Below are positions 2,354 to 63,356 of a DNA stretch of 64,000 nt, piece by piece. Source of the stretch: Phycisphaerae bacterium. Lineage in GTDB: Bacteria; Planctomycetota; Phycisphaerae; UBA1845; DATKUK01. The stretch is from contig DATKUK010000080.1 of the NCBI GenBank assembly GCA_035530655.1, forward strand, positions 4,534 to 68,533, written 5' to 3'. Both the position numbers and the translations under genes were made by a program. The notes under the pieces are model-generated. The model ran no database searches. It saw nothing but the letters and a program-made list of their open reading frames with translations, and was not told where the DNA came from. Positions within the stretch are counted from its first letter, which is position 1, and every line of letters begins with the position of its first letter.

Positions 2354-3463
2354 TCATATTGACCGCACGGCTCCATATGGATTGAGAAAATCCAGTTTCT
2401 TCAGGTACAGACCGACCAGCCACGACTTGGTCGGCGTGCGGTCACGCAATCTGCGATGGACGTCTGTCTCGACTTGCCCGTCTGGTTGCTGTTCGGCGAG
2501 CCATGAGCGCAGCCCCCTTACGAACGAGCCGACCCAGCGCTTCGCTTCACTGGAATGCGGGTACGTGTCCTGACACTGGAGAAAGGGGGGCACGGTGTCA
2601 CCGTCTGCCAGGGGGTGACTTGGCAGAGAGACACAGCGCTCTTGCTTGCCGATACACCAGAGCAGGCGTTCCAGGAAGCGGAAGGCCTTTGGCGCGCAGA
2701 GCCAGGAATCATGAATGAAACTTCGAAACCATGGCCAGTCCGGGCAGATTTCCGACAGCCGGTTTTCCATGTGCTCGACCTGTGGCACGTGAAGCTCTGC
2801 AAAGTACGGATCGCGGTAGTCCGGGTTACCGTAATGACCGTAACCATTTCCCGTGCAGTGGGCGTCGCCCAGAAACTGGTCGCGACAGTAGACATCACGG
2901 GCATCGTCGTCCCAAACGAGGCTCTTGAGCCACCAGCGTTGCCGATGCAGTGTCCTGCGAACCAGAAGCTCCTTCAGTTCCGAACGACGTCCGAGCACAT
3001 CCCAGAGCGCTGTGCATACCTGCCCCCAGTCCGGGCGGGGATGGTTCCCGCGCCCGCAAAGCTCAGCAGCTGCCTGGTCGGGAGTTGCTCCTGCCAGCCA
3101 TGCGTCGAGGCAGAAGATGTAATCCTGCATGCGCTCCTTCCGCTGGCGATTGGCCGTGTAGCAGCCGTGCACGAATGTTGGAGGAGCCTGCCTGCCCACA
3201 GCGTCGAGCACCTCCAGATAGGACTGCGGGAAAGCGCCGTGAGGGCAGAAAGGGGTGAAGTTGATCGACCTTTCCACGATAGCCCTTGCCCACGCCGGGA
3301 CGCCCGACAGCGACCGCTCCTGGGCTACGAGTTGCTGCAACGCATCGTCCGTCCGCAAGTCGGGGCAGCCATCCCAGCCCTGGTCATAGGGGGTGTACGT
3401 CCAGCATCGACTGGAGATGCTGCTCTCGTAGACGGCCTTGGACCAGTCGCCGGCATGTCCCAT
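2354..3463 (-). CDS. Hypothetical protein (Trp/Cys/His-rich, no domain recognised)
   Basis: 369 aa ORF starting at an ATG preceded by AAGGA. Non-repetitive composition, in contrast to the overlapping Arg/Pro-rich alternative frames. Confidence 0.5.
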   Translation of the reverse strand: MGHAGDWSKAVYESSISSRCWTYTPYDQGWDGCPDLRTDDALQQLVAQERSLSGVPAWARAIVERSINFTPFCPHGAFPQSYLEVLDAVGRQAPPTFVHGCYTANRQRKERMQDYIFCLDAWLAGATPDQAAAELCGRGNHPRPDWGQVCTALWDVLGRRSELKELLVRRTLHRQRWWLKSLVWDDDARDVYCRDQFLGDAHCTGNGYGHYGNPDYRDPYFAELHVPQVEHMENRLSEICPDWPWFRSFIHDSWLCAPKAFRFLERLLWCIGKQERCVSLPSHPLADGDTVPPFLQCQDTYPHSSEAKRWVGSFVRGLRSWLAEQQPDGQVETDVHRRLRDRTPTKSWLVGLYLKKLDFLNPYGAVRSI

Positions 3464-11766: not shown

Positions 11767-12729
11767 CTAGGAGTGAAACAACTGGCTGACGCTGGTGCGC
11801 TCGTAGATATTGCGAATCGCGCGGGCGAACAGCTTGGCCGATGAGATAACCTTCACCTTGTCCGGCAGCTTTGCGAAGCGGTATTCGATCGTGTCGGTAA
11901 TCACTACCTCGGTGAGTCCGGAGTTGCCGATCAGTTCGGCGGCCCCTTCGCTCAGCACACCGTGCGACACGACGGCATGCACCTCGACGGCGCCCTTCTT
12001 CATCAGCAGGTCGCACGCCACCACCACGGTGCTGCCGGCGAAGATCACATCGTCGCAGATCAGCACCCGCTTGCCCTTGACCTCGCCAATGACGTCCATG
12101 GCCGATGCCCGCTCGTCGACCTCGCTGCGACTCTTGTCGACGATGGCCAGACTCGTCCCCAGCGCCTGGGCGTAGCCGCGGGCGTGCTTGGCGAACCCTG
12201 CATCCGGCGCCACGACCACCCAATCCTGCGGGTCTTTGATCATGGGCTTGAAGTGCTCGACGAACAGCGGCATGGCCAGCAGGTGGTCAACGGGCACGTG
12301 GAAGAAGCCCTGGATTTGGGCGGCGTGCAGGTCCATGGTCAGCACGCGGTCGACGCCCACCGCCTCCAGGCAGTCGGCGCAGGCCCGCGCGCGGATGCTG
12401 ACGCGGGGCTCGTCTTTCTTGTCGCCTTTGGCGTAGCTGAAGAACGGCACCACGGCGGTCACCTGGGCGGCTGAGGCCCGTCTGAACGCGTCAATCCAGA
12501 ACAGCAGCTCCACGAAGTTGTCGTTCACCGGCCAGCTCAGCGTCTGGATGATGAACACATCCTTGCCCCGGACGTTCTCCAGCACGCGGACCAGGGTGTT
12601 GCCCTCGCTGTAGATGCGGGCCTCGCAGCGGCCCGGCTCGATGCCCAAATGCTGACACACCCGCTGCGTCAGTTCCTGGCTGGCCGTTCCCCCGAAAACA
12701 CGAAGTCCGTTGCTCGGCTTTTCTGGCAT
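11767..12729 (-). CDS. prs: Ribose-phosphate pyrophosphokinase
   Basis: Trimmed to MPEKPSNGLRVFGG at 12729. DLHAAQIQGFF, VAPDAGFAKHA and the PRPP loop LICDDVIFAGSTV are present. Confidence 0.93.
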   Translation of the reverse strand: MPEKPSNGLRVFGGTASQELTQRVCQHLGIEPGRCEARIYSEGNTLVRVLENVRGKDVFIIQTLSWPVNDNFVELLFWIDAFRRASAAQVTAVVPFFSYAKGDKKDEPRVSIRARACADCLEAVGVDRVLTMDLHAAQIQGFFHVPVDHLLAMPLFVEHFKPMIKDPQDWVVVAPDAGFAKHARGYAQALGTSLAIVDKSRSEVDERASAMDVIGEVKGKRVLICDDVIFAGSTVVVACDLLMKKGAVEVHAVVSHGVLSEGAAELIGNSGLTEVVITDTIEYRFAKLPDKVKVISSAKLFARAIRNIYERTSVSQLFHS

Positions 12730-12839
12730 TGTCCTCCTCGCTCCACACACCGATGTGCCAAAGGTCGCGCCGGGCGGCAGCATAGCACAACCGGCCGCTG
12801 GAGGCACCCCCCTTGTTGCCGTCGCCGAGCGGCCCACCC

Positions 12840-12868
12840 TTGACCGCCTCCGGGCGTGGGGGTATAAA
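12840..12868 (+). promoter_or_regulatory. Candidate sigma70-like promoter (TTGACC-N17-TATAAA)
   Basis: Hexamers at 12840-12845 and 12863-12868 with a 17-nt spacer, about 140 nt upstream of the amidohydrolase ATG. Sequence match only. Confidence 0.3.
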
Positions 12869-13010
12869 GAGCACTTCCGTGGCCGCGGACCTCCCCGGCG
12901 GAGGCGTCCGTGGCCGCTGCTCTAAATCCGTTCGCGGCGAGGCTCCTGCCGGACAGACAGGGCGGTCCTTGCCGACAAGATGGGCTCTCCGGTTGGCGGC
13001 GCCTTTTCGC

Positions 13011-13910
13011 ATGATTGTTGATTGTCACACGCACATCTGGCAGTCACCCACGCAGCTCGGACTCGGTCGTGTCGGCGGGCGGCTCGCGCCAACGGAGACC
13101 AACGGACAGGCCACACCCCAGCAACACTACCAAGCCAGCCGGCCGGTCGATCTGACGCTTGTTCTGGGCTTCAAGAGCCTGCGCTTGGGCGTCGCGATGC
13201 CTGACAGCGTCATCGCCGGGTACGTGCGACAACATCCCGATCGCCTGATCGGTTTTGGGGGAGTCGACCCCACGGATCTGCCGAAGGCTCTCGATCAGAT
13301 GCATCGCGGCTGCACCGAGCTGGGGTTGAAGGGCGTGACGTTCTCGCCGGCCGCTCAGCAGATGCATCCGGCCGACACGCGCGCACTCCAGCTCTACGCC
13401 GAGGCCAGCCGTATGGGCCTGCCGATCATCTTCGACGCCGACGTACACCGCATGACGGCCGGCCGAATGGAGTTCGCCCAGCCCATGCTGCTCGACGAGG
13501 TTGCCAATCAGTTTCCACAGTTGCGGATGGTCGTGGCCCATATGGGCTATCCCTGGGTCGAGCAGACGATGGTGCTGTTGGGCAAGCACGCCCATGTGCT
13601 GGCCGACGTGTCCGGGCTGCTGCATCAGCCCTGGCAGGCGTACAACGCTCTGCTTTCGGCCTACCATCACGGGGTAATCGATAAGCTGCTGTTCGGCAGC
13701 GATTTCCCTTACGGTTCGGCCACATCGGTCATCGAGACGCTCTACAGCCTCAATCAGATCAGTCACGGCACGAACCTGCCGAGTATTCCCCGGTCGCTGT
13801 TGCGCGGCATTGTGGAACGCAACGCGCTGGCCCTGCTGGGCATTGCGGCGCCGAGCGATGCGCCAGCCCCTGTCGAACCTGAATCTGTCGTGCGGAATGA
13901 GCGGATTTGA
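13011..13910 (+). CDS. Amidohydrolase-family (TIM-barrel metal-dependent hydrolase) protein
   Basis: Trimmed to MIVDCHTHIW at 13011. The N-terminal HxH motif, a later AHMGYPW segment and the GSDFPY terminal motif fit amidohydrolase_2. Confidence 0.8.
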   Translation: MIVDCHTHIWQSPTQLGLGRVGGRLAPTETNGQATPQQHYQASRPVDLTLVLGFKSLRLGVAMPDSVIAGYVRQHPDRLIGFGGVDPTDLPKALDQMHRGCTELGLKGVTFSPAAQQMHPADTRALQLYAEASRMGLPIIFDADVHRMTAGRMEFAQPMLLDEVANQFPQLRMVVAHMGYPWVEQTMVLLGKHAHVLADVSGLLHQPWQAYNALLSAYHHGVIDKLLFGSDFPYGSATSVIETLYSLNQISHGTNLPSIPRSLLRGIVERNALALLGIAAPSDAPAPVEPESVVRNERI

Positions 13911-49999: not shown

Positions 50000-52852
50000 T
50001 CACCAGTAAATATAGCGCTCGAACAGACGACGGTCCCGCTGCGGCAGGGCCGTCACTTCCGGAATGAGGTAGCGGTTCTCCTCCAGATCCAGAAGGATCT
50101 TCCCGTTCCGCCCGTAGTCCAGAGCCGCATCCTGCGCGTACCGGATGATGAACTCCAGATCTCCCAGGTCCGTCCTCGCTTTGAACGTGAGGAAGTTGTG
50201 CCAGGAGTTGATCGAGTCGATACGCTCGATGGTATGCACGAAGTAACGGCGCAAGAGGGCCTCGCGAATGAGCTGCCGCGCCTCGGCCGGCCAATCTTCG
50301 AGATTGCGAACGAGCCCGATCTCCTGTTCCCGGTCCTCGATATCGACGTAGCGCAGACTGATATAACGCGTGGGATGCCGAACCGGCAGGCAGCGCAGGG
50401 CAAACACGCCATGGTAGATTCTCTCATTCATCACCGTTACGTGCAGTGCGCCATGGTTGCCCAGATGCACCGCGGCAATTCGCGGCGTGAGCCATCGAGC
50501 ATGGTGGCTCGTGATCGGCGGCAGGTGAGTATCCGGGTCCACGCCTGACTCGATCGCAGATTCGCCTGTGCCCGCCAGGGGCCTTAACGCGTACGAATGG
50601 TCCACGTCGCTGTGAGCTGGTGTGGTCGACTGAAGTCGGACGAACTTCGCATATCGGCCGTTGCGCTTCATCAACTCCATGTGATGGCCCTGCTCGACAA
50701 CTCGCCCTTCCTCGACCACAAGTATGTTGTCACAATTGCGCAGCGTGGATAGGCGATGAGCGATCAGGATGCTGGTGCGGCCGCGGACCAGCTCCTCCAA
50801 AGCTTTCTGGATTGCCAGTTCCGACTCGCTATCCACGCTGCTGGTGGCTTCGTCCAGAATCAGAATCCGGGGATCACACAACAGCGCGCGGGCGATGCTC
50901 AACCGCTGACGCTCACCGCCCGACAGGCCGGCTCCGCGCTCGCCCACCCACGTGTCGTAGGCATGGTATCGCCTCAAAATGAAGTCATGGGCGTTGGCCG
51001 CACGGCAAGCGGCGATGACCTGCTCCTCCGTGGCATCTCGCCGGCCGTAGACCATGTTGTCCCAGAGCGTACCCCGAAACAGAAACGGTTCCTGAAGAAC
51101 CACACCCATCTGGCGTCGCAGATCCGACATTGGAGCGTCGCGAACATCGTTGCCGTCGACCAGGATCTGCCCTTCGTCCACGTCATAATAACGTGAAAGA
51201 AGGTTGATAATGGTCGTCTTCCCCGAACCGCTGCGACCCACGATCCCCAGAGTCTGGCCCGCTTCAATCGTGAAACTGACGTTCTTGAGCACGGGCGCCT
51301 GCCGACTGTATCCGAAGGTGACGTTGCGGAACTCGATGCGGCCCTGAAGCGCCGGTAGCGCGACGGCGGCATGCGTCTCGCGTATCGCAATGGGCGTGTC
51401 GAGCACTTCGAAGATACGATGGACTTGCGTGCTGAACTGCGTCACCCACGTAGTCAAGTTCGTCAAACTGGCCAGCGGACCGTAGAACATGGCCAGGTAT
51501 CCGAAGAACGCCATCAGCGTCCCCAGCGTGAGCTGCTGACCGAGCACGCGCCCGCCGCCGACATACCAGACCACCCAACCGCCTACCTGAAAAACAATAC
51601 CCATCAACGGATAGAAGGTGGCGGCCGAGCTGTCCACCTTGCGCCGGGCATCGCGCAGGCTGCCGCTGGATTCCATGAAGCGACTCAACTCGCGCTCCTC
51701 CTGAGCGAAGGCCTTGACCACACGTATGCCCGACAAAATGCCACTGAGCATGCCCGCCTGCTTGGAGGACCGATCGTAAAACCGGCGGTAATGCGGGTGC
51801 ACAACCCGGTAGAAAAGCAACGATCCCAGCACAACAAACGGCGCAGGAATGAACGTCCACACCGCCAGTTTCGGTTCCAGGCTGAACATAAGGACCGCGG
51901 AGAAAATGACCAGGAGAAGTTGCACGAAAAAGCCGGCCGTCAACTGACCCATGAAACCCTGTACCGCCTCGGTGTCGTAGGCGACCCGGCCCACCAGCGA
52001 ACCGACCTGCTGCTTGTCGTAGTAACTCAGATCCAATTGCTCGAGGTGCTCGACCAGGCGGCCGCGAATGTCATAGGTGATGGATGTGCCGACGCGGCTG
52101 GACAGGCGCCCGTTCAAAGCGTTGATGATGGCCCGTACCATTTGCACCAACGCCAGCACCGCAACGACCGACACCAGCAGGTGCACCCCCTGCGCCAGCG
52201 TCTGGCTCGTTGCAGCCGTTGCCTGCGGGACCGACCCGGCGCGCAGCACGTTGTCCACCAGGTATCGTGTCAGCAGCGGCCCGATCATGTCGCACGCGAT
52301 GCCCACCAGCAGCAGTCCCATCATGAGCATCGCCCACGCCCGGTACGGCCGCATCAGATGAAGTACGCGGATGATCGCCCTGCCCGGGCGAATGCAGCGT
52401 GGGCACGTTTCGCCGGCGAACTGGAGCATCAAGTCGCACTTCGGACATCGCCGCGGGTCCTGCTCGTCCTCGGGTCCCAGCTCGACCCGGACACCCTCGC
52501 GGAGCTGCTGCAAATGTCGGGCCAGCCGGCCGAACCAGTACTTCATGCGGTTCGAATAACGAATCAAATCGACCCAGATCCCGCCAACCTTGGCCTGGAG
52601 CAGTCCCGAACCAACGGCTGGAATCGTGCGAAACTCCTCGATCTGGTGCATGGCGACGTTCACACGCGGGGCCGATGGTCCCCCCTGGTCGAACACGCAG
52701 ACCACGTCGCGCGTGGCGATGATCCATTGCGGATCGTAGCTACCTCGCAGGTCAATATCACTGGACAGCGCCAGCACCACGTCTTCCGGCCGAACTCCCA
52801 AGGCCGCCAGACGCGTAACCACGGCTGGCGGAATGTCAGATCGCAACCGCAT
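50000..52852 (-). CDS. ABC exporter (TMD+NBD) with N-terminal extra domain plus zinc ribbon and C-terminal DUF1854 fusion
   Basis: 950 aa. CPKCD...CPRC ribbon and a six-helix TMD. Walker A GRSGSGKTT, signature LSGGERQR, Walker B ILILDEATS. The C-terminal 150 aa (LRCLPVRHP...YISLRY...FIIRY...ERYIYW) match the DUF1854 pattern. Confidence 0.88.
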   Translation of the reverse strand: MRLRSDIPPAVVTRLAALGVRPEDVVLALSSDIDLRGSYDPQWIIATRDVVCVFDQGGPSAPRVNVAMHQIEEFRTIPAVGSGLLQAKVGGIWVDLIRYSNRMKYWFGRLARHLQQLREGVRVELGPEDEQDPRRCPKCDLMLQFAGETCPRCIRPGRAIIRVLHLMRPYRAWAMLMMGLLLVGIACDMIGPLLTRYLVDNVLRAGSVPQATAATSQTLAQGVHLLVSVVAVLALVQMVRAIINALNGRLSSRVGTSITYDIRGRLVEHLEQLDLSYYDKQQVGSLVGRVAYDTEAVQGFMGQLTAGFFVQLLLVIFSAVLMFSLEPKLAVWTFIPAPFVVLGSLLFYRVVHPHYRRFYDRSSKQAGMLSGILSGIRVVKAFAQEERELSRFMESSGSLRDARRKVDSSAATFYPLMGIVFQVGGWVVWYVGGGRVLGQQLTLGTLMAFFGYLAMFYGPLASLTNLTTWVTQFSTQVHRIFEVLDTPIAIRETHAAVALPALQGRIEFRNVTFGYSRQAPVLKNVSFTIEAGQTLGIVGRSGSGKTTIINLLSRYYDVDEGQILVDGNDVRDAPMSDLRRQMGVVLQEPFLFRGTLWDNMVYGRRDATEEQVIAACRAANAHDFILRRYHAYDTWVGERGAGLSGGERQRLSIARALLCDPRILILDEATSSVDSESELAIQKALEELVRGRTSILIAHRLSTLRNCDNILVVEEGRVVEQGHHMELMKRNGRYAKFVRLQSTTPAHSDVDHSYALRPLAGTGESAIESGVDPDTHLPPITSHHARWLTPRIAAVHLGNHGALHVTVMNERIYHGVFALRCLPVRHPTRYISLRYVDIEDREQEIGLVRNLEDWPAEARQLIREALLRRYFVHTIERIDSINSWHNFLTFKARTDLGDLEFIIRYAQDAALDYGRNGKILLDLEENRYLIPEVTALPQRDRRLFERYIYW

Positions 52853-53115: not shown

Positions 53116-53252
53116 TCACTTCATCATCTTGCGGAAAGAATCCCGGGCGTCGCCGACCTGACGCCGAATCCGCCGGACGAGGCGACGGGCCCAGACGAAC
53201 TCGGTCCCCAGCAGGGCCAGACCTGCCGGTAACACGACAAACGCCGGCCCGG
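53116..53252. repeat. Displaced copy of the terC 3' end (left boundary repeat of islet)
   Basis: 137 bp, 10 mismatches against 56732-56868. The minus-strand translation PGPAFVVLPAGLALLGTEFVWARRLVRRIRRQVGDARDSFRKMMK* differs from the TerC C-terminus at only 2 residues. Confidence 0.9.
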
Positions 53253-53307
53253 TTTCCACACCCTTGACGCCCACCTACCGCCGCGTACACTGAACGTCGA
53301 GGTTTAG

Positions 53308-53646
53308 GACTGGGAGGACTGGCCGACGCCCATCAAATACGCCCTGTTCGAGAACAACATCACTGCCGATCCCGACGACTACGCAGCCATGGTCCAGATC
53401 AGCGGCAGCGCCGACGGCGACGATCTGGTCCAGGACATCATCGACCAGGGCACGACGGTGAACAAGCCGGACATCCTGGCGGTGACCGCCGCCCTCAAGC
53501 TGGCCTGCCAGCGGCGGGTTGAGCAGGGCCAGCGGGTCAACTACTTCGGCATGATGGACTTCTTCCCGCGGATCAAGGGCGTCTTCACCGGCCCGACCGA
53601 CAGCTTCGACCAGGCCTGCTACCGCGTGGACATCGGGGCCAATGCG
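53308..53646 (+). pseudogene. N-terminal fragment of an HU_HIG / DUF4469-type DNA-binding protein
   Basis: The open frame after the TAG at 53305 reads ..IKYALFENNITADPDDYAAMVQISGSADGDDLVQDIIDQGTTVNKPDILAVTAAL...GVFTGPTDSFDQACYRVDIGANA, matching the N-terminal domain of Bacteroidota-type DUF4469 proteins. There is no start codon at the expected position, and homology breaks at about 53646. Confidence 0.7.
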
Positions 53647-53698
53647 TTTTCTACCTCTGGGTTGATTGGCAATGTTTTGCCGGTTAGAATTCGTAAGA

Positions 53699-54016
53699 AT
53701 GGACGTACTGCTCCAGATCAAGCGGCTGGTGGTGCAAGGACGGATACGGTTCACCGAAAAGGCTCGCGAGGAAATGGAGGCCGACGGATTGAGCGCGGGC
53801 GAGGTGATCGAATCGATCGCCAACGCCCAGGCCATCGCGAAGACTCTTCGGTCACGCAGCCGCACCAAGCGCTATTCAGGTGAGAAACTCTATGTCATCA
53901 AAAGCTTCAGCTACGACGGGACGCTCATCTATACGAAGGGGGCCATCGTCCGCCAAGCGAAACAAGAAGTCTTCTACGTCTTCGTCTCCGCGAAGATCGC
54001 CACGCTCGGTGGGTAA
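53699..54016 (+). CDS. MqsR-like type II toxin
   Basis: ATG at 53699. 105 aa. LLQIKRLVVQGRIRFTEKAREEMEADGLS...KLYVIKSF...IYTKGAIV...VFVSAK follows the MqsR-family pattern. AT-rich leader. Confidence 0.6.
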   Translation: MDVLLQIKRLVVQGRIRFTEKAREEMEADGLSAGEVIESIANAQAIAKTLRSRSRTKRYSGEKLYVIKSFSYDGTLIYTKGAIVRQAKQEVFYVFVSAKIATLGG

Positions 54017-54206
54017 ACACCCTGGGCTGAAGGTTTGCGTCTCGTGTGGATCACGACGCGTCCAATCCAAAAGGGTGTCGGTTCGCCTGCGGGACGGACG
54101 GAGGGTGACCGGTGTCAAAGCTGATGTGTGTGCCGCGTGCGGCGAGCGTTACTTCGACCTGGAAGCGATGCGACAGCTCGAAGCCGAGCGCACGGACGAC
54201 GAATGA
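54009..54206 (+). CDS. YgiT-type zinc-finger antitoxin (MqsA N-terminal-domain-like, no HTH)
   Basis: GTG at 54009 overlaps the toxin end by 8 nt. 65 aa with CVSCG...x27...CAACGERYFD, the YgiT zinc-ribbon signature. Confidence 0.65.
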   Translation: MGKHPGLKVCVSCGSRRVQSKRVSVRLRDGRRVTGVKADVCAACGERYFDLEAMRQLEAERTDDE

Positions 54207-54457
54207 CCGGCAACCGCTTGAAGTTCGACCCCAACGAGGCTGACGAGGGCCTCTACTTCGTGGCCGACGCCAGCGGCGAGACCAAGGTGTCCACCGTCCA
54301 GAAGAACAAGCCCTCACAGCTCGTCTTCCTGGTCCCGGCGGGACTGGCAGCGGGCACATACCACCTGGAAGTCCGGGCCAGGATGGGCAGCGGCACATCG
54401 GCCCGCGAACTGCGTATGGGACGTCTGGACTCGACGCTGACGGTCCTGCCGATGTAG
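54203..54457 (+). pseudogene. C-terminal DUF4469 (Ig-like) fragment, possibly still translated
   Basis: MTGNRLKFDPNEADEGLYFVADASGETKVSTVQKNKPSQLVFLVPAGLAAGTYHLEV...LTVLP matches the DUF4469 C-terminal domain. Its ATG overlaps the antitoxin stop (ATGA). Different frame from the N-terminal fragment. Confidence 0.6.
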
Positions 54458-54916
54458 GGTAGGCTGGCAAATCGGCGGTCGGGTATTCGTGGCACAGGCG
54501 TCTCGCCTGTGGGTCAATCAGCGCGATCGCCGGTCCGAAAAGCGGTTTTCGGACCTTCGGGTCTGGCAAAATGGGCAATTTGGATAAGTTGTGCGGTGTT
54601 ATGAACTCCGGAAAAACCGTTTCCAAGCTAAGATCGATTACCACGCCTTACTTGGCGCGGGCGCCCGCATCCAAGCTGGGAGTCGGTGTCGGCCTCAACA
54701 GGAGTCGGGACCGCGTAAGCTGCCTACTCGGTCCCGATACCGTGCTTACTCGGTCCCGACCTCACCGAGGTCCGAACCGGACTTCACTGAGGTGCGCGGC
54801 CGACTTCAAGCTGGTGGTCTGCGCACCCAACCCTACGGGACTCCAAGCATAGGAGGACAGTCGGTGACAACAATGACTTACGATCTTGACACGGCTCACT
54901 TCATAGGAGCTTCATT

Positions 54917-55381
54917 GTGAACACAAGACTGATCGGCTCAATATTTCTTGTCTTTGCCACAGTGTGCCCATCTTCGGCCTTCGCTGATGATACCGATGAC
55001 CTGCCCGTCGCTGCCTACCGCGGAGACTTAAACCGCGTGCGGTCTCTTCTGTCCGCCGGTGCCGATGTGAACGCCAAAGCCACTGCCGGCGTGACGGCCT
55101 TGTGGCAGGCGGCCGCAAATGGTCATACTGAGATTGTCAAGGCCCTGCTGGAAAGCAAAGCTAATGTGAACGTGCAACGGAAAACCGATAGCTCTACTCC
55201 GTTATTCGTGGCTGCAGTATATGGCCACGCTGATATAGTCAAGGTCCTGCTGGAGGCAGCGGCGGATGTGAATGCCAAGGTACATGCCGCCGGCGAGGAC
55301 CATACACCTTTGAGCATCGCCACACAGAGGGGCCACACGGAAGTTATCAAGCTCTTGACGGAATATGGAGCCAAGGATTAG
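54917..55381 (+). CDS. Secreted ankyrin-repeat protein
   Basis: GTG start preceded by AGGAG. Signal peptide MNTRLIGSIFLVFATVCPSSAFA. Three to four ANK repeats (G.TALW.AA.NGH.EIVKALLE..A.VN). About 52% GC in a hand-counted line. Confidence 0.85.
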   Translation: MNTRLIGSIFLVFATVCPSSAFADDTDDLPVAAYRGDLNRVRSLLSAGADVNAKATAGVTALWQAAANGHTEIVKALLESKANVNVQRKTDSSTPLFVAAVYGHADIVKVLLEAAADVNAKVHAAGEDHTPLSIATQRGHTEVIKLLTEYGAKD

Positions 55382-55588
55382 CGCTCCGTGCCCGGTGATC
55401 GGCCGCCCCATCCCCGCTTGCGAAAGCGACCCGATCTCGCGTGAGCAGCAGGCGCCGGGTGCCACTGCTCTGTGAGCAGTGTTTGGCGCATCGACTGTGT
55501 CCCATGGCGGAGCACTGCTGACCCTTCGGCTGCGCTCAGGGCAGGCGCCGCAGCAGCACACCGACCCTATTAAGCAAGGAGCAAGAAG

Positions 55589-55912
55589 ATGGCAGAAAAG
55601 ACGATCATGTAGCCGGGCGCATCCGGGAAGGAGTACAAGTACTGGATCTACCCGATCGGTGCTTCTTTCAAGGATACCCCAGGGAATTACATCTTCGCAA
55701 AGCAGACGTCTCCTGACCGTTGGGCTCCCGTCTACATCGGAGAGACAGGTACTTTGAAGGACCGTCTGTCGAATCATGAGAAGATCCCCTGTCTCAAGCG
55801 TTACGGCGGCACGCATGTCCATGTGCACACGAGCTCCGCAGACGAGGAGACGCGAAGGGCAGAGGAGTCGGACCTCCTCGCGAAGTGGGATCCGCCCTGC
55901 AATAAGGAGTAG
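55589..55912 (+). pseudogene. GIY-YIG-like small nuclease-family gene with in-frame TAG at codon 8
   Basis: Not in the ORF track. AAGGAG-N7-ATG at 55589, then MAEKTIM-TAG(55610-55612)-PGASGKEYKYWIYPIGASFKDTPGNYIFAKQ...PVYIGETGTLKDRLSNHE..., a GIY-YIG-like core (NYIF...VYIGET...R). Stop at 55910-55912. Confidence 0.6.
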
Positions 55913-55992
55913 CCGCGTAGGGTGCGTCGAGGACACACCTTCTCCTGCTGACGCACGTCAAGCCGGTTCGGCAGAACGAGATTCTCACGGCG

Positions 55993-56325
55993 ATGAAGCG
56001 CTACAAGGACTACAGCGTGGCGTTCGCCCGGACCCTGATCCTGAAGACGCCGCCACCCTTGCGTGCGACCCGGAAGGGGCGAAAGCGCAATCCATGGAAC
56101 AAAACGGCCCAGCGCAAGAATGACCTGCTCAAGAAGCTGGCCGAGGCCGAGCAGAAGCACGACTTCTACTCCCGTTTGTATAGGCAGTACACGATCGACC
56201 TGCTGCGGCTAGCCATCCACGCGCGTGGCCTGCTGACCAACAGCCGGATTCGTGAGCACCTGCATCAACACCGCCCGGATATCGTGGCGCGTTTCGGGAC
56301 AATCATCGCGGATGCACGAGGATAG
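55993..56325 (+). CDS. Hypothetical protein
   Basis: 110 aa ORF in the islet, basic and helical, with no domain recognised. The next small ORF starts 5 nt after its stop. Confidence 0.35.
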   Translation: MKRYKDYSVAFARTLILKTPPPLRATRKGRKRNPWNKTAQRKNDLLKKLAEAEQKHDFYSRLYRQYTIDLLRLAIHARGLLTNSRIREHLHQHRPDIVARFGTIIADARG

Positions 56326-56329
56326 CACC

Positions 56330-56500
56330 ATGGCCAAGTGGACAGGCGAGAAGACCATCCGCCAGATTCTGCGGCGTGAGGCAGCGGGGCTGCCGCTGTC
56401 TCCCGGTGGCAGCAGGGAGGGAGTAGAATCGAAGCTGCAAATGGCCGGATCGCGTGTGGTCTATGCCCGTGATGTACGCTCCGGCAGGCCTTACGAATGA
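56330..56500 (+). CDS. Hypothetical small protein
   Basis: ATG at 56330 preceded by GAGGA. 56 aa (MAKWTGEKTIRQILRREAAGLPLS...). Confidence 0.3.
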   Translation: MAKWTGEKTIRQILRREAAGLPLSPGGSREGVESKLQMAGSRVVYARDVRSGRPYE

Positions 56501-56512
56501 AGGAGGTTCCCG

Positions 56513-56902
56513 GTGCGCAGACAAGTCGCGACGATCTTCGTGCTGGCCATGTTGCTGGCCGCCAACAGTTGGGGACAGGCTGCGAACCGGGCAGCCGCGC
56601 CGCCGGGAGGCTGGTCGAGCGAATCAACGTCAGCTGCGCTCGGCCAGCAGGGTCGCAGGCAACGCGCGACTGCTCGCGGGCCGGACCGCCGGCCCGGCGC
56701 CCCACGGACTCTGATCGCTCGGGACGCGCCGTCACTTCATCATGTTGCGGAAAGAATCCCGTGCGTCGCCGACCTGACGCCGAATCCGCCGGATGAGGCG
56801 ACGGGCCCAGACGAACTCGGTGCCCAGAAGCGCCAGCCCCGCCGGCAGCACGACAAACGCCGGCCCGGGAAGCACGATCATCGCCACGCCGACGATCAGT
56901 AG
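56513..56902 (+). CDS. Possible small secreted protein (3' part doubtful)
   Basis: GTG at 56513 preceded by AAGGAGG. Signal-peptide-like MRRQVATIFVLAMLLAANSWGQAA. The rest is low complexity and runs antisense into the terC 3' end, so the true extent is unclear. Confidence 0.25.
   Translation: MRRQVATIFVLAMLLAANSWGQAANRAAAPPGGWSSESTSAALGQQGRRQRATARGPDRRPGAPRTLIARDAPSLHHVAERIPCVADLTPNPPDEATGPDELGAQKRQPRRQHDKRRPGKHDHRHADDQ
56732..56868. repeat. terC 3' end copy in functional position (right boundary repeat of islet)
   Basis: 137 bp matching 53116-53252. Begins exactly at the terC stop codon. Confidence 0.9.
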
Positions 56903-57958: not shown

Positions 57959-58182
57959 GGCAGGTATCCACCGCTGCGGCGGCGCCGGGCGAACCCGGCC
58001 GTAGTCTTCGCCCTTCCGATGAGCCGGAAGCTTACATCACTCGCACCGCGCACGTCCACCCACGCCGCTTGCTCGGTCTCAAGCGACCGGCCCGCGTGGC
58101 CACGGTTTGCAGCCGGGTGGCCCTGGCCGCTAAACTGGTGTGGCCGGTACAACTTTGCTGGTTTGTCGCCAAGGAATTGCGT

Positions 58183-58878
58183 ATGCGGGGATCTCCAGTC
58201 TCCGGATCGAGCCCATGGTGGCGTCGGCTGTTCGGTGGGTCCAAGGCCGCGAGGTCGGCTGCCGTCATCGTTGCGCACCCGGATGACGAGACGCTCTGGG
58301 CTGGTGGGCAAATCCTCGCGCATCCACGGTGGGATTGGTTTGTGGCGTCGATCTGCCGGGCGAGCGACAAGGACCGATCGCCGCGATTCTTCAAGGCCCT
58401 CGAGCGCCTCGACGCGATCGGGGCGATCGCCGATCTGGATGACGGGCCCGACCAGCATCCCCTCGACACGCATATGATCCAGGAGACGGTGCTCCGGCTG
58501 CTTCCCCAGACCCACTATGACGTCATCCTGACCCACGGGCCCAGCGGCGAGTATACGCGTCATCGGCGGCACGAGGAGCTGTCCAGAGCGGTCACCGAGT
58601 TGTGGCAAAGCAAAAGGATTGCAGCGAAATCTCTCATGCTTTTTGCCTACGAAGACGGTGGCGGGCAGTATCTGCCCCGTGCGCGGCAGGATGCCCATTC
58701 GCGCCACAAACTGCCCGAGCCCGCGTTCCGGGAGAAGTCGCTGATCATCCGCCAAAGCTATGGATTCGCGAGTGATAGCTGGGAGGCCCGCGTGACGCCG
58801 CGGATCGAGGCGTTTTGGTGTTTCCAGTCACCCAGGCAGCTGGGGCACTGGCTGCTGAAGACGGGAGGACAGAGATGA
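58183..58878 (+). CDS. PIG-L/LmbE-family deacetylase
   Basis: ATG at 58183 (AAGGAA upstream). VIVAHPDDETLWAGG motif and a later HRRH histidine cluster. Confidence 0.82.
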   Translation: MRGSPVSGSSPWWRRLFGGSKAARSAAVIVAHPDDETLWAGGQILAHPRWDWFVASICRASDKDRSPRFFKALERLDAIGAIADLDDGPDQHPLDTHMIQETVLRLLPQTHYDVILTHGPSGEYTRHRRHEELSRAVTELWQSKRIAAKSLMLFAYEDGGGQYLPRARQDAHSRHKLPEPAFREKSLIIRQSYGFASDSWEARVTPRIEAFWCFQSPRQLGHWLLKTGGQR

Positions 58879-60017
58879 AGGTTCTGGTGCTCTACGACTA
58901 CCCGCCCTCGCCGGGGGGGCTCGCTACGCAAGGCGACCTGCTCTACAAAGGTCTGCTGCATCTGGGCATCGAGGCTCATGCCGTGCACTTTGAATCGGCC
59001 CAGGAAAAGGAGTGGTACTACCGATGGTTTAAGCCGGACGTGGTGGCGGGAATTGGCTACTGGGGGCATGCGGCCCACCTGATTCTTCATCCGCAGCGGT
59101 TCGGCATTCAAGCCGTGCCCTGGCTGGTGGCTGACGGATACGTGGCCAACTACCGAGAGGTTCTCGACGCCCTGCCCCTGATTCTGGTCACCTCAAACTG
59201 GGTCAAGGAGGTATACGTTCGCGACGGCATCAAGCCGGAGAACATACAGGTCCTGCCCGTCGGGTGTGATACCGACGCCTTCACCCCCAGGGACGCCAGC
59301 GACCTCAAGGTGGCCGTCGTTCGTGAGGCGCTGGGCGTGGCCCCGGATGAGTTGATGATCCTGACCGTCGGCGGCGACGCCACCTCCAAAGGAGCCCAGG
59401 AGGTCATGCAGGCCCTGGCCCTGCTGGGACGCAAGATTCCCCCCTGGAAGTATGTGTGCAAAGTGTGGCCCCAGCCCCGCACCGAACTGCAAAACCTGGC
59501 GGACCTGCAGCTGGCCACCCAGTTGGGACTGGAGAAGAACGTCGTCTTCACCACCAACGTCGTGTCCCGCAACTTCATGCCTTATCTGCTGGCCGCCTGC
59601 GACATCTACGCCGCCCCGTCCAGGTTGGAGGGCTTCGGGATGCCGCAGATTGAGGCCGGCGCCTGCGGCAAACCGGTCGTCGGGATTAAGGCCATGGCCA
59701 TGCTGGAGACACTCGTGCACGAGGAAACCGCCCTGCTGGCCGGTGTGGCGCAGGAGGTTCGCATCGGCGAAGCGATCCTGGGCGAGGAGTCGGGCTTCGA
59801 GGACGGCCATCGTGTCGTGTTCGAAAGTTTTCGTACCGCCGATTATCGGGCCAGTGTATACGATATTGCCGACCATCTGCTGCGACTCATGGAAGATGCC
59901 GATTTGAGAAGACAATTGGGTCAGAACGCGCGTAAGAGAGTGATCGAAAACTACGATTACCGGGTTGTCGCACAAAAATTCTGCGACATCCTAAGTGGGA
60001 CTTTGGGAATCCAATAG
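58875..60017 (+). CDS. Family 4 (GT-B) glycosyltransferase
   Basis: ATG at 58875 overlaps the upstream stop (ATGA). SRLEGFGMPQIEAGACGKPVV E-x7-E motif. Confidence 0.85.
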   Translation: MKVLVLYDYPPSPGGLATQGDLLYKGLLHLGIEAHAVHFESAQEKEWYYRWFKPDVVAGIGYWGHAAHLILHPQRFGIQAVPWLVADGYVANYREVLDALPLILVTSNWVKEVYVRDGIKPENIQVLPVGCDTDAFTPRDASDLKVAVVREALGVAPDELMILTVGGDATSKGAQEVMQALALLGRKIPPWKYVCKVWPQPRTELQNLADLQLATQLGLEKNVVFTTNVVSRNFMPYLLAACDIYAAPSRLEGFGMPQIEAGACGKPVVGIKAMAMLETLVHEETALLAGVAQEVRIGEAILGEESGFEDGHRVVFESFRTADYRASVYDIADHLLRLMEDADLRRQLGQNARKRVIENYDYRVVAQKFCDILSGTLGIQ

Positions 60018-60020
60018 TCG

Positions 60021-61259
60021 ATGAGCCCTCGGAAGTCCGATCCAATCGTCACCGCAAAAAGGGCCGCGATCGAGGTTCTGCGGCACAACCGGCGAGGCCC
60101 CTACCGTTCGCTGCCCCGCACGGCGGGCTGGGGATATCCCGAGCCTTACACGCGCGACCTGATGATCTCCGCCTTGGGCTTCCTGGTATCCGGCGACGAG
60201 CATCTGGTCGTATCGCTTCGTCGGGTGCTTGAGTCGCTGGCACACAACCAGAGTCGATTGGGGCATATCCCGTCCCTGGCGCACAACCCGAACGACCGCG
60301 GGGCCAGCGATACCACCCCGCTTTTCCTCTTGGGTCTGGCGATGTATCGCCAGGCCACCGGTGAGGCCGACTTCCTACAGGAGGCGGCCGGCAAGGCCCT
60401 CTGCTGGATGGATTACCAGAGCCCCGACGATCTGGTCATGGTCGCGCAGCAACCGACCAGCGACTGGCGCGACGAGCACTGGGTCCTGGGCTACGGCCTG
60501 TACGTCAACACCATTGTTCACGCATACCTGCACTTGCTGGGTTTGCACGACAAGGCTCGCGATCTGAGATCACTCATGAACCGGTTCGACGTCCGCGGAC
60601 GGAAGCGCAATCGCCATGTCCACGAAGGTCTGGTGGTTCCCTACAAACCCTATTACGCGATGTGGTCGTACAAGATGGACAACAACGAGCGATTTGACCT
60701 GCTGGGCAACAGTCTGGCGATCCTGACGGGGGTGGCTTCGCCGTCGCGCGCGGCCAGCCTCGTGGCCTGGATCGAGGCCGAGTGCGACGCCCTACGCCAG
60801 AAGGGCCATCTGGCTCTGCCGCTTTCGCCCTGCCTGTTTCCCTATCTGCAGCCCGGCGACCCGGACTGGAGACCGCGCTACGAAAGGTTCAACCAGCCCG
60901 GCGAGTATCACAACGGCGGCATCTGGCCCTTCATCTGCGGCTTTCACGTGGCGGCGCTCGTCGCAGCCGGGCGCCCCCGGTTGGCTGAGCAAAAACTGAT
61001 GGCATTGACCCACTTGGTTCGCTCCGCAAGCAACGCTGATCTGGGCTATGGATTCAACGAATGGTTCAAGGCCCAAGACGGCTCGCCCCGGGGGCAGGAT
61101 TGGCAGACCTGGTCGGCAGCCATGTATCTCTATGCCTGTGCGTGTGTCGAACAGGGCTGTACGCCGTTCTTTGATGACATCAGGCGGGCTGCCGCCACAC
61201 CGGCCGAAGCGATCGAAGCCCGCCGGGCGCATGCGCCCTCCTCCACTGAGACAGAATGA
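60021..61259 (+). CDS. Six-hairpin glycosidase (amylo-alpha-1,6-glucosidase / GH100 invertase-like)
   Basis: 412 aa. GYPEPYTRDLMISALGFL, TSDWRDEHW and YHNGGIWPFICGF resemble the GDE_C / neutral-invertase family. Confidence 0.65.
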   Translation: MSPRKSDPIVTAKRAAIEVLRHNRRGPYRSLPRTAGWGYPEPYTRDLMISALGFLVSGDEHLVVSLRRVLESLAHNQSRLGHIPSLAHNPNDRGASDTTPLFLLGLAMYRQATGEADFLQEAAGKALCWMDYQSPDDLVMVAQQPTSDWRDEHWVLGYGLYVNTIVHAYLHLLGLHDKARDLRSLMNRFDVRGRKRNRHVHEGLVVPYKPYYAMWSYKMDNNERFDLLGNSLAILTGVASPSRAASLVAWIEAECDALRQKGHLALPLSPCLFPYLQPGDPDWRPRYERFNQPGEYHNGGIWPFICGFHVAALVAAGRPRLAEQKLMALTHLVRSASNADLGYGFNEWFKAQDGSPRGQDWQTWSAAMYLYACACVEQGCTPFFDDIRRAAATPAEAIEARRAHAPSSTETE

Positions 61260-61336
61260 CGTCGCGGACACCCCTGTCTGTACAAGACTGCCGCAGGCAC
61301 GGCGACCAATTTACCCCGCAGCACGTAGCGAGGCGC

Positions 61337-62869
61337 TCAATCTTCTGCTCTCTGGGATCGGCTAGTGGCGTGCTTGGTCGGCGATTCAAACGACTCGTCA
61401 GCACCATCATTGTCGCCTCTGCCGTTTCGCAGGCGGTAGGTGGCTCTGACCGGCCAGCCCACCATCCGGATCGGCATGAGGACAAACGAGCGAGTCGCGT
61501 TGAAAACGTTGCCCGCAGTTAATCGCAGTACGTCACGCGCCGGGCGGGCGCCGGGTTCCTCGAGTCGCCGCGCCAACGGCACCACCAGGCAACGCAGCAA
61601 CGAGGAGAGCAGAAACAGTACGTGGTAGTTCACCAGGGTCAGCGGCCCGATCCGCACCGACCAACCTGTCAGGACCTGCGCGATCGTGCCGGCCAGAAGC
61701 GGACCGCACACCCCACCGATCCCTGCCACGATCGAACCGATAGCCTGGTAGCTGCTCAGTCGACCACCCTCGGCGAATCCCAGCATGATGTTGGTGCTGG
61801 CCAACTCGAGCCCGCTCCAGGCCATGCCTCCCGCCAGCGGGATCAGCGGACCCACCCACCAGAGTCCCGGCGTGATCAGACACCACATGGCCGCCAGTGG
61901 AATAACGCACGTAGACGCCACAATCAGCACCGGCCGGTTGCCCCACCTGTCGCACGCCCGACCCCACCAGCCACACGAGAGGTACCAGCCCACCGACGGG
62001 GCGATCAGAAGCACCACGTTGACGGTCATGTTGCTCATCTGTACCACTTCGCGAAGGTTGCGCTGGAGGAAGTGTCCTATCATGCCGCCCGTCGAGAACA
62101 GTAAGAGCGTGCTGAAGTACAGATAACGTCGAAACGAGCGATCGCGCAGCGGCGAAAGCACCAGGTTCGTCCAGGTCAGTCGAACCTCGGAGGGCTGCTT
62201 GGGAATCTCCGGCACCAACGCGAACAGCAGGATGTCGATCGTGCCGCAAATCGCGGCCACCGTAAAGACGATGGCCAGTCCGTTCGGCAGGCCCAGGCTG
62301 CCCGAACTGGCCCGGTCGATGAACCAGCCGCTCAGCAAAGCCGTCGGCACGCTGACCAAAAGCCCCACGCGCCGCCGGAAGGCCCAGTATCGGCCGCGAA
62401 TTCGCGGTGGAATCAGGTCGGCCATCCATCCCATCCAGGTCGGGTTGCCCACCGCACCCAGCGAAAAGGCCAGGAAGTACACCAGTAACAATGTCGCCAG
62501 GCGAACGTCGCGCCACTCAGGACCGCTCGGAAGCAGCAGAGGCAGAGCCGCTACCGCAAGCCATAGCAGTCTCTGTAAGCCCACGCAGCATACGAACAGC
62601 CACTTGCGGCGGCGGGTCCGCTCGATGATCCAGCAGACAGGAAGCTGTATGCCCGTCGCCAGAAAGGGCACGGCGCCAAGTAGCCCGTAGAAAAACGGCG
62701 TGCCTCCCAACTCCTTGGCCAACTCCGGCAGGGCCGTTCCGCCCGTTGCAGCAAAGAAAAACGCGCCGAACCCCCATGCAGCGGTCACCAGTTGCAGCGA
62801 CCTGCGAAGCCGCGGGCCACGCAGCCGCTCGGCTTCTTCAAACACAGTACCGAATATTCGGGAAACCAC
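61337..62869 (-). CDS. MFS-type transporter
   Basis: 510 aa, about 12 hydrophobic helices with a central loop and a hydrophilic C-terminal tail. Confidence 0.75.
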   Translation of the reverse strand: MVSRIFGTVFEEAERLRGPRLRRSLQLVTAAWGFGAFFFAATGGTALPELAKELGGTPFFYGLLGAVPFLATGIQLPVCWIIERTRRRKWLFVCCVGLQRLLWLAVAALPLLLPSGPEWRDVRLATLLLVYFLAFSLGAVGNPTWMGWMADLIPPRIRGRYWAFRRRVGLLVSVPTALLSGWFIDRASSGSLGLPNGLAIVFTVAAICGTIDILLFALVPEIPKQPSEVRLTWTNLVLSPLRDRSFRRYLYFSTLLLFSTGGMIGHFLQRNLREVVQMSNMTVNVVLLIAPSVGWYLSCGWWGRACDRWGNRPVLIVASTCVIPLAAMWCLITPGLWWVGPLIPLAGGMAWSGLELASTNIMLGFAEGGRLSSYQAIGSIVAGIGGVCGPLLAGTIAQVLTGWSVRIGPLTLVNYHVLFLLSSLLRCLVVPLARRLEEPGARPARDVLRLTAGNVFNATRSFVLMPIRMVGWPVRATYRLRNGRGDNDGADESFESPTKHATSRSQRAED

Positions 62870-63356
62870 GGTTCAGTCTTGCGCTTCTGGCACCCGCCAC
62901 GGTCGACCCACTGCCCGCCCGGAGCAGAGTTACAATGGGTCGACCCGGTCGACGACGGACCTCGACATGATAGGGGTGGTTGGCCCGGCGGCAACTCTCT
63001 GGCCCGTGGCTCCCGGTTTGCCAGTTGGCCTCTTGTGTGGGGCTGACCCGCGCATTAGAAGTATCCTCGCGTCGGCGTGTGCCGGCGGGGTGGTGAGGAG
63101 TTCTGCCACCCGAATGTGTACCCGCTGCATAGGGGCAGGCAGATATGCACAGATTCGGGCAAATCGGTTTCGTGTTGGCTGTCGGTCTGCTGCTGGCCGC
63201 CTCGTCAGGGTGCTCGGTGGGCCGCGCGATATACGTGATCTTGTTCCCCTGGACGTTGTGGACCTGAGCGTCTCCATCCTCAGGGCGAGCGAACGGCCCG
63301 ATAGGGCGTCGTGCCCCATCCAGGCCGACATACGCCTTGATCTGTGAGTCGCAATC

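Follow-up and report, generated by a model that had tools for sequence, protein, structure and literature searches.

The results presented here concern a 3.6-kb islet in a 64,000-nucleotide stretch of DNA (hereafter 'the window', to which all unqualified positions refer) from a metagenome-assembled genome of an uncultured Phycisphaerae bacterium. The islet lies between terC and an ABC transporter gene, and is bounded by two copies of the terC 3' end, one attached to the gene (copy R) and one displaced to the far side (copy L). The features that define the locus are:

50000..52852, (-) strand: ABC transporter gene (ABC_membrane, ABC_tran, DUF1854), the conserved downstream neighbour of terC in genomes with an empty site
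53116..53252, (-) strand: repeat copy L, a displaced terC 3' fragment that directly adjoins the resident ABC-side flank
56732..56868, (-) strand: repeat copy R, the last 44 codons plus stop, attached to terC, with 3/137 differences to the relative L171
56732..57958, (-) strand: terC, 408 aa, intact; Pfam TerC 5.4e-52 (residues 83-285) and C-terminal PGPGW 6.6e-18 (residues 343-395)

A gap-free alignment of the two copies confirms the observation, made in an earlier note on this DNA, that the terC 3' end is duplicated in direct orientation at 53116-53252 and 56732-56868 (137 nt, 10 mismatches, 0 gaps, 93% identity), with one correction: the repeat comprises 44 full codons plus stop, not 45. The longest stretch identical between copies R and L is 31 nt. 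On the 5' side of the gene the homology breaks off sharply at CCCGG, and on the 3' side it probably extends 10 nt beyond the stop codon, the 10 nt in question being TGATGTGGCC in the left copy and in L171, and TGATGCGGCC in a second relative, L084. By codon, 8 of the differences are synonymous and 2 are non-synonymous (I/V and N/K); the repeat codon analysis gives pS 0.22, pN 0.021, dN/dS ~0.08 and Fisher p = 5.9e-4, and the earlier description of the differences as almost all synonymous, with two amino acids changed, is upheld. Both amino-acid changes are on copy L (I to V, N to K), and the 44 residues are identical in copy R, L171 and L084. Copy L lies within a 52-aa open reading frame (ORF) with a GTG start (53116..53274, (-) strand), for which the only Pfam match is PGPGW, at profile positions 23-53. 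The exact TerC protein is present on 10 contigs.

Comparison of terC loci in relatives establishes that the enclosed DNA is inserted, as the earlier note had proposed. In four relatives (L171, L001, L168 and the P0001 contig), terC runs straight into the flank that lies left of copy L in the window, and then into the ABC gene. The closest of these is L171, which is 95.9% identical over the last 318 nt of terC and 94.1% identical over 4.9 kb on the ABC side; the empty sites of L001 and L168 are ~89% and ~82% identical, and the P0001 contig shows, from gene calls alone, TerC, a 260-nt gap and the ABC gene. At the empty-site junction, the terC stop codon is joined to TGATGTGGCCATAAG.... We conclude that the islet is an insertion into an ancestral terC-ABC junction and, because the sites are empty in these four relatives, that the event dates to after the split at ~5% divergence. 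The gap between the two genes is variable in content: it holds 0 genes in L171, L001 and L168, a regulator and a gene of at least 701 aa in L084, and two unrelated genes in the distant L164, which keeps TerC...ABC-GH130 synteny and has no duplicated terC end. No second terC 3' copy was found in the DNA available for L084 or L164. Searches for the 52-aa fragment, and for a 110-aa ORF of the islet described below, found only the window's own population, apart from one ordinary truncated terC at a contig start.

The ten variable positions of the repeat, numbered in terC sense, are 21, 23, 29, 32, 38, 41, 47, 75, 107 and 125. The states at these positions are:

Copy R (terC-attached): CGGGGTC AAC
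Copy L (displaced): TAATCGG GCG
L171: CGGCGAG AAC
L084: TAATGGG AAC
L001: CGAGCAA AAC
L168: CGGGGGG CCG

Per 137 nt, copy R differs from L171 at 3 positions and copy L at 9, and for L084 the numbers are 7 for copy L and 9 for copy R. Copy R has the appearance of the resident allele. Only L084 has the same T, A, A and T as copy L at positions 21, 23, 29 and 32, and the TTA/GCA/GGT haplotype of copy L is otherwise seen only in L084. A single change in copy L is private (position 75), there are 0 indels and 0 stops, and its other states all occur in some intact terC. These observations confirm the earlier proposal that the copies diverged as functional coding sequence in separate lineages, since both alleles at most variable sites occur in the intact terC genes of other lineages; most of the divergence arose in working genes before the two copies were joined. 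With one private change and no indels or stops, copy L became a fragment recently. An origin by tandem duplication in situ followed by decay was rejected on the same distribution of alleles.

The combinations of haplotype and flank in the window are recombinant. In the three empty-site genomes for which DNA is available (L171, L001 and L168), a CTG...GCG/GCA...GGG/GGC haplotype is joined to the ABC flank, and in L084 a TTA...GCA...GGT haplotype is joined to a regulator flank. In the window, a CTG-type haplotype and a stump of the regulator meet at terC, and a TTA-type haplotype and the ABC flank meet at the displaced copy. L084 is the only other genome in which terC precedes the sequence adjoining copy R (10 nt plus the regulator 3' end), and joining the two ends of the insert restores the L084 order of terC 3' end, 10 nt and regulator 3' end; at the junction of the corresponding circle, the HU-promoter side of the islet, ...GGGTGTGGAAA, would be joined to CCGGGCCGGCG... 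and through the stop codon into CGGCGCGTCCCGAGCG.... Nothing in the available 3.6 kb of L084 corresponds to the remainder of the islet. The L084-type region, from JGI 3300028920 and 3300030616, is cut off on its far side in both contigs, which end within the gene of at least 701 aa; no Pfam domain was found in that gene. The exchange of haplotypes between flanks therefore points to one reciprocal crossover, located 3' of the distinguishing sites.

Each possible crossover position was scored by adding up two distances, that between the resident chimera and L171 and that between the foreign chimera and L084. For an L171-like resident and an L084-like foreign partner, 15 changes are needed if the crossover lies at the 5' edge of the repeat, vs 7 if it lies anywhere beyond position 41. 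The earlier note had held that the element brings a replacement end for terC. With these costs, and with copy R only 3/137 from L171, that proposal is not supported for repeat positions 1-41 if L171 represents the resident allele, and would hold there only if the L171 allele were itself element-derived; the insert could have supplied no more than the final 96 nt, and these show no detectable difference. Positions 75, 107 and 125 may be three mutations that the dead copy acquired once inserted, in the neutral ratio of 2 non-synonymous to 1 synonymous, may represent the resident 3' part if the crossover fell within the 27-nt identical block at positions 48-74, or may derive from the donor. An imperfect 23-nt palindrome, CGCCTCATCCG-G-CGGATTCGGCG, read by eye, is present in both copies at repeat positions 69-91 (window 56778-56800 and 53162-53184), inside the permitted crossover interval; it encodes RRL(I/V)RRIRR and may merely reflect arginine codons.

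In Campbell-type integration, as with suicide plasmids, one crossover in a shared segment generates direct repeats, each of which joins a resident flank to a foreign flank. The islet shows the same haplotype-flank pattern, for which the one TTA genome is the reference. According to the reading that we favour, at about even confidence, the islet arose recently, after the split from L171, when DNA of a sister lineage was inserted as a circle by a Campbell-type single crossover. One partner would have been the resident terC 3' end at the ancestral terC-ABC junction, and the other a DNA circle with 137-147 bp of terC 3' end that came from a sister lineage within the Phycisphaerae (L084-like, with the regulator after terC). 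A single reciprocal crossover 3' of repeat position 41, within the last ~100 bp of shared sequence, would have let terC keep its own reading frame and, as far as visible, its own sequence, the frame being preserved because the shared segment includes the stop codon, and would have left the foreign terC end as a dead fragment on the far side, beside the resident flank. Host homologous recombination is in keeping with a crossover point that varies and with the missing recombinase; alternatively, a site-specific enzyme may have acted in trans or since been lost. The circle could have been an aberrantly excised element that had taken adjoining chromosomal DNA with it (the regulator stump and the terC end), as specialised transducing phages do.

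The genes and gene fragments of the islet all lie on the (+) strand, opposite to terC, and are:

53264..53664, (+) strand: HU-like fragment, with the DNA-binding N-terminal part at 53326-53664; Pfam HU-DNA_bdg 2.1e-16, profile positions 2-101 of 124
53666..54206, (+) strand: toxin-antitoxin-like module, consisting of a DUF4258-like ORF (53666-54016) and a YgiT-type zinc-finger ORF (54009-54206)
54203..54457, (+) strand: DUF4469 fragment, the C-terminal part of a split HU/DUF4469 gene; Pfam 4.5e-16, profile positions 23-98 of 101
54917..55381, (+) strand: ankyrin-repeat gene, 154 aa, with a signal-peptide-like N-terminus; Pfam Ank families
55589..55912, (+) strand: GIY-YIG-like ORF, motif read by eye; in-frame TAG at 55610-55612, the same in the Joint Genome Institute (JGI) assembly
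55948..56325, (+) strand: RepB stump, the C-terminal ~40% of a ParB_N+RepB partition-like protein, 5'-truncated and called as a 110-aa ORF at 55993-56325
56330..56500, (+) strand: 56-aa ORF, of which the first ~25 codons match the N-terminus of an HNH_repeat protein (serine-recombinase module)
56589..56731, (+) strand: regulator stump, left from the 3' end of a GntR/periplasmic-binding-type regulator gene, with 10 nt of post-stop sequence ahead of it

This cargo is mostly mobile-element debris, in agreement with one of the two options of the earlier note, a decayed element. The HU/DUF4469 gene (53326-54457) is split by the toxin-antitoxin-like pair, which replaces ~45 codons of its middle and has its own promoter-like site at 53662-53690 (promoter scan). 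The HU-like fragment has ACG in place of the expected ATG, a GGGAGGA Shine-Dalgarno sequence upstream and a promoter-like site at 53264-53291 (same scan); the JGI annotation has an 84-aa gene at the DUF4469 fragment, the frame of which differs from that of the HU part. The 65-aa zinc-finger ORF matches TIGR03831 YgiT_finger in NCBIfam at 28.7 bits, against a cutoff of 20.2, and its partner matches DUF4258 weakly in Pfam (0.0081). Antitoxins of the MqsRA type consist of an N-terminal YgiT zinc finger and a C-terminal helix-turn-helix domain, and are paired with an MqsR toxin. The 65-aa ORF has the zinc finger, but the full MqsA model falls below cutoff (20.3 vs 61.8), and the partner ORF is weakly DUF4258-like rather than an MqsR toxin.

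The toxin-antitoxin pair and the ankyrin gene are the only islet genes that look intact. The ankyrin protein is 554 aa long, with ~16 repeats, in the JGI assemblies L172 and L173 of the same population, and the window's gene is without 1.2 kb of near-identical 99-nt repeat units (window 55061-55172); owing to the longer gene the islet measures ~4.8 kb in the JGI assemblies vs 3.6 kb in the window. The short gene in the window would be either an assembly collapse or a real length polymorphism. The ORF that the earlier note had called a GIY-YIG gene contains the in-frame TAG at 55610 and has no match in Pfam, NCBIfam, PHROG or PDB; it is probably a pseudogene. The description of the enclosed DNA as AT-richer holds marginally for the islet as a whole (GC content 0.608 vs 0.630 for the window) and clearly only for the ankyrin gene (0.557). 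The 457-nt non-coding stretch at 54460-54916 has no ORF with a family match, and no Rfam match at E <=1 was obtained there or elsewhere in the islet. One assembly's gene caller also calls a 129-aa ORF at 56513-56902 on the (+) strand, which has a signal-peptide-like start and no family match, crosses the regulator stump and runs antisense into the terC 3' end; it is probably spurious.

The right part of the islet contains the stump of a module associated with large serine recombinases. Full-length ParB_N+RepB homologues are ~285 aa long, and the window's match begins at about residue 157. Window 55951-56395 has 73-76% nucleotide identity to the IMG/VR contigs L183-L188, over the 3' half of RepB and the start of HNH_repeat. 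The 56-aa ORF itself has no family match in Pfam, NCBIfam or PHROG; the tblastx and blastn matches to L183-L188 reach window 56395-56407, the L185 homologue has a Pfam HNH_repeat match, and by these alignments the ORF is identified as the remnant of an HNH_repeat gene. On the metagenome contig L179 and on L183-L188, the RepB and HNH_repeat genes come after a large serine recombinase and another ParB-like gene. What is left of this module in the islet is the C-terminal ~125 codons of RepB and ~25 codons of the next gene, ~450-550 nt in all; the recombinase and the first ParB gene are gone, and the islet thus holds a stump rather than the full set of four genes. Nor was a complete element of this kind found adjoining terC. 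Outside the window, the four-gene module (large serine recombinase, ParB-like, ParB_N+RepB and HNH_repeat) recurs at L179 2722-6844 and at L185 1714-7020, where an AAA_16 ATPase comes next, and P0131 is a deletion derivative in which the recombinase C-terminus is fused to the RepB C-terminus; a literature search found no specific description of the module. The regulator stump is 74% identical to L084 over 140 nt (E 6e-22). The L084 regulator is full length beside terC (Pfam GntR and periplasmic-binding), and the divergence between stump and regulator, 26-31%, is at the neutral level (intergenic DNA, 12-35%).

Neither the islet ORFs nor the gene calls covering the 64-kb window contain an integrase, serine recombinase or transposase domain, and tblastn with serine recombinase and tyrosine integrase queries gave no matches; the earlier statement that no integrase is visible holds for the islet and extends to the whole window. 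Several candidate origins were rejected. Alternative ORFs of the islet gave no Pfam matches that would indicate hidden recombinase or transposase remnants, and the window contains no tRNA or tmRNA that could have served as a target. A phage or plasmid origin was sought by DNA similarity, with no match in INPHARED or PLSDB; the only PHROG matches in the islet are to ankyrin repeats. A phage carrying a terC 3' end as attP was sought with a degenerate pattern, with 0 matches in IMG/VR.

At ~160 other terC loci fetched, there was no comparable repeat-bounded island and no nearby recombinase, and the view that terC is a recurrent insertion target is not supported. Two distant terC loci have direct repeats that begin in or at the terC 3' end, namely L110 (2151-2250 and 2398-2496; 100 nt at 97%, with a spacing of 247 nt, close to where the contig ends) and L014 (1527-1600 and 2264-2337; 74 nt at 95%, 737 nt apart), which could be small insertions at a similar site or assembly artefacts. 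A second presence/absence difference beside terC is a 4.9-kb block upstream of the gene (window ~58095-63027; PIG-L deacetylase, GT1 glycosyltransferase, GH100 and a major facilitator superfamily protein), which is absent from L001, where window 63028 and 58094 are brought together at positions 3412 and 3484; L084 has the block, and the short P0001 contig has part of it (GT1 and PIG-L). The ABC-transporter gene of L001 is apparently rearranged at the contig end (5583-5741), where sequence from just past the ABC stop codon (window 49988-49946) comes after an inverted match of 96 nt to window 52284-52379, representing a deletion or a misassembly in that metagenome-assembled genome. In L164, the ABC transporter of which is 69% identical to that of the window, a Phage_integrase-family gene (12624-13679, 351 aa) lies just beyond GH130, at the place occupied by Peptidase_S9 in the window.

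Several observations weigh against the insertion of a sister-lineage circle by a single crossover. There are only 10 informative sites, and the foreign flank is available in one genome, L084. At positions 107 and 125, copy L agrees with the distant L168 and not with L084. The background divergence between window and L171 is 5-6%, so that the 9/137 differences of copy L are not anomalous taken alone, and a polarity read from distance to L171 alone was dropped once this background had been measured. Taking the L171 type as resident presupposes that L171 was never a carrier of the islet. With the labels swapped, such that L171 has lost the islet by recombination between repeats, a replacement end joined at the 5' edge is equally parsimonious (cost 7); the swap needs an older insertion. 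The regulator stump is 26-31% diverged from L084 and copy L just 5%, a disparity that indicates that the donor was not L084 itself. Spontaneous circularisation and homologous insertion of chromosomal DNA are much rarer in nature than integrase-mediated insertion, and the analysis turned up no circular form, no donor genome and, within the same population, no polymorphic empty site. A live alternative, which we consider somewhat unlikely, is an integrative element of the e14/icd type, the site-specific recombinase of which was lost or supplied in trans and the attP of which contained a replacement for the terC 3' end. In that case the element would be the source of copy R, and copy L would be the displaced resident end, each wholly or in its 3' part. 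A direct repeat of a gene 3' end, an intact gene and mostly synonymous differences are the architecture of icd and icdC around e14 as given in PMC13626634, citing Hill et al. 1989, and empty sites exist in relatives, as this alternative expects. It accommodates the stump of a large-serine-recombinase module in the islet and the distance of copy L to L171, which equals background divergence. The variable sites are fitted as well by swapped labels, or by a crossover within positions 48-74, as by the sister-lineage circle, and the chimera L[1-7]+R[8-10] matches L084 at 9/10 sites. Set against this are the lack of any recombinase in islet or window, the cost of 15 vs 7 changes for a 5'-edge crossover with an L171-like resident, and the fact that terC is not a recurrent target in the ~160 other loci. 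Large serine recombinases, moreover, normally leave a few bp of identity, not 137 bp. Finally, the terC-attached copy of L084 is foreign-type from position 21 and that of the window resident-type to at least position 41, and no single fixed crossover point can explain both.

A different history, which we regard as improbable, would make the islet an old island that predates the split of window, L171 and L084, was lost from L171 and others by recombination between the repeats, and had its copy L later overwritten by DNA of the terC-ABC type. The near-neutral divergence of the regulator stump from L084 mildly favours such an age, the islet genes are heavily decayed, and deletion through 137-nt repeats would be easy: loss of e14 recombines icd with icdC, according to PMC13626634. 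This history, however, demands several independent precise losses (in L171, L001, the P0001 contig and possibly L168) as well as the later conversion of copy L, and it is mildly disfavoured by the 1-4 changes of copy L's own, vs ~7 or more expected since the split from L171. It is also conceivable, though we rate the chance as low, that the islet is a recombinase-free, non-autonomous element that moves among related Phycisphaerae by using the last ~147 bp of terC as a portable attachment site, excising and re-inserting by host homologous recombination; copy L would then be a mosaic of the terC alleles of former hosts, which would explain its L084-like and L168-like states. If this were true, short coding-sequence homologies could be attachment sites that spread junk DNA among close relatives. 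That copy L is a working gene for a 52-aa PGPGW mini-protein, or the relic of a selected second terC paralogue, is very unlikely. The GTG-start ORF exists and matches PGPGW, and the differences between copies are mostly synonymous; yet the homology stops abruptly at CCCGG with no further terC sequence, copy L holds just half of the PGPGW profile, the fragment is confined to the window's population, both amino-acid changes fall on copy L while three intact genes encode an identical peptide, and the alleles of copy L are those of terC genes of other lineages. Least probable of all is an assembly chimera of co-occurring strains. The sources are metagenome assemblies, the samples being JGI 3300031539, JGI 3300031669, SRR8554503 and SRR8554504, the short contigs L175 and L176 break within the repeat (both stop at window 56792), and the ankyrin repeats appear collapsed in the window, but the complete terC-to-ABC structure is spanned by contigs of at least two JGI samples, which are independent assemblies and which therefore argue that no chimera is involved; in addition, the longest identity between the copies is only 31 nt, and the junction of copy L with the HU promoter must be real DNA.

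In E. coli, the e14 prophage in icd is flanked by a duplicated gene 3' end, of which icdC is the C-terminal pseudogene fragment (PMC13626634, citing Hill et al. 1989). The islet shares with this system direct repeats of a gene 3' end, an intact gene, few and conservative differences, and a far copy that is a fragment. It differs in that e14 encodes its own integrase and supplies the new gene 3' end, whereas the islet is without a recombinase and the terC-attached copy looks resident over at least 41 nt, and in that e14 is a 15-kb prophage and the islet 3.6-4.8 kb of debris. We do not assign the islet to the e14/icd family: a recombinase is missing, and the polarity is either the wrong one or undecided. 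Campbell-type integration is familiar chiefly from laboratory work, or from plasmids with homology in insertion sequences or rRNA genes; here, 137-147 bp of a sister lineage's chromosome would provide the homology, on a circle that is hypothetical. Flexible genomic islands at synteny breaks resemble the terC-ABC gap in their variable content, but are usually exchanged by double crossover in flanking genes with no duplicated gene end, and the islet has one.

We conclude that the islet is a small, mostly dead insertion and an ordinary kind of event. Its importance is modest: it is a clean natural case in which a protein-coding gene has had its 3' end duplicated by an insertion, and it comes from the poorly studied Planctomycetota/Phycisphaerae. 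The lesson that it offers is that a duplicated gene end with synonymous differences shows that the alleles of two lineages have been joined, and is by itself no proof that an element supplies the working end of the gene; at terC, the combinations of allele and flank point in the opposite direction from a replacement end, or to a crossover well inside the repeat.

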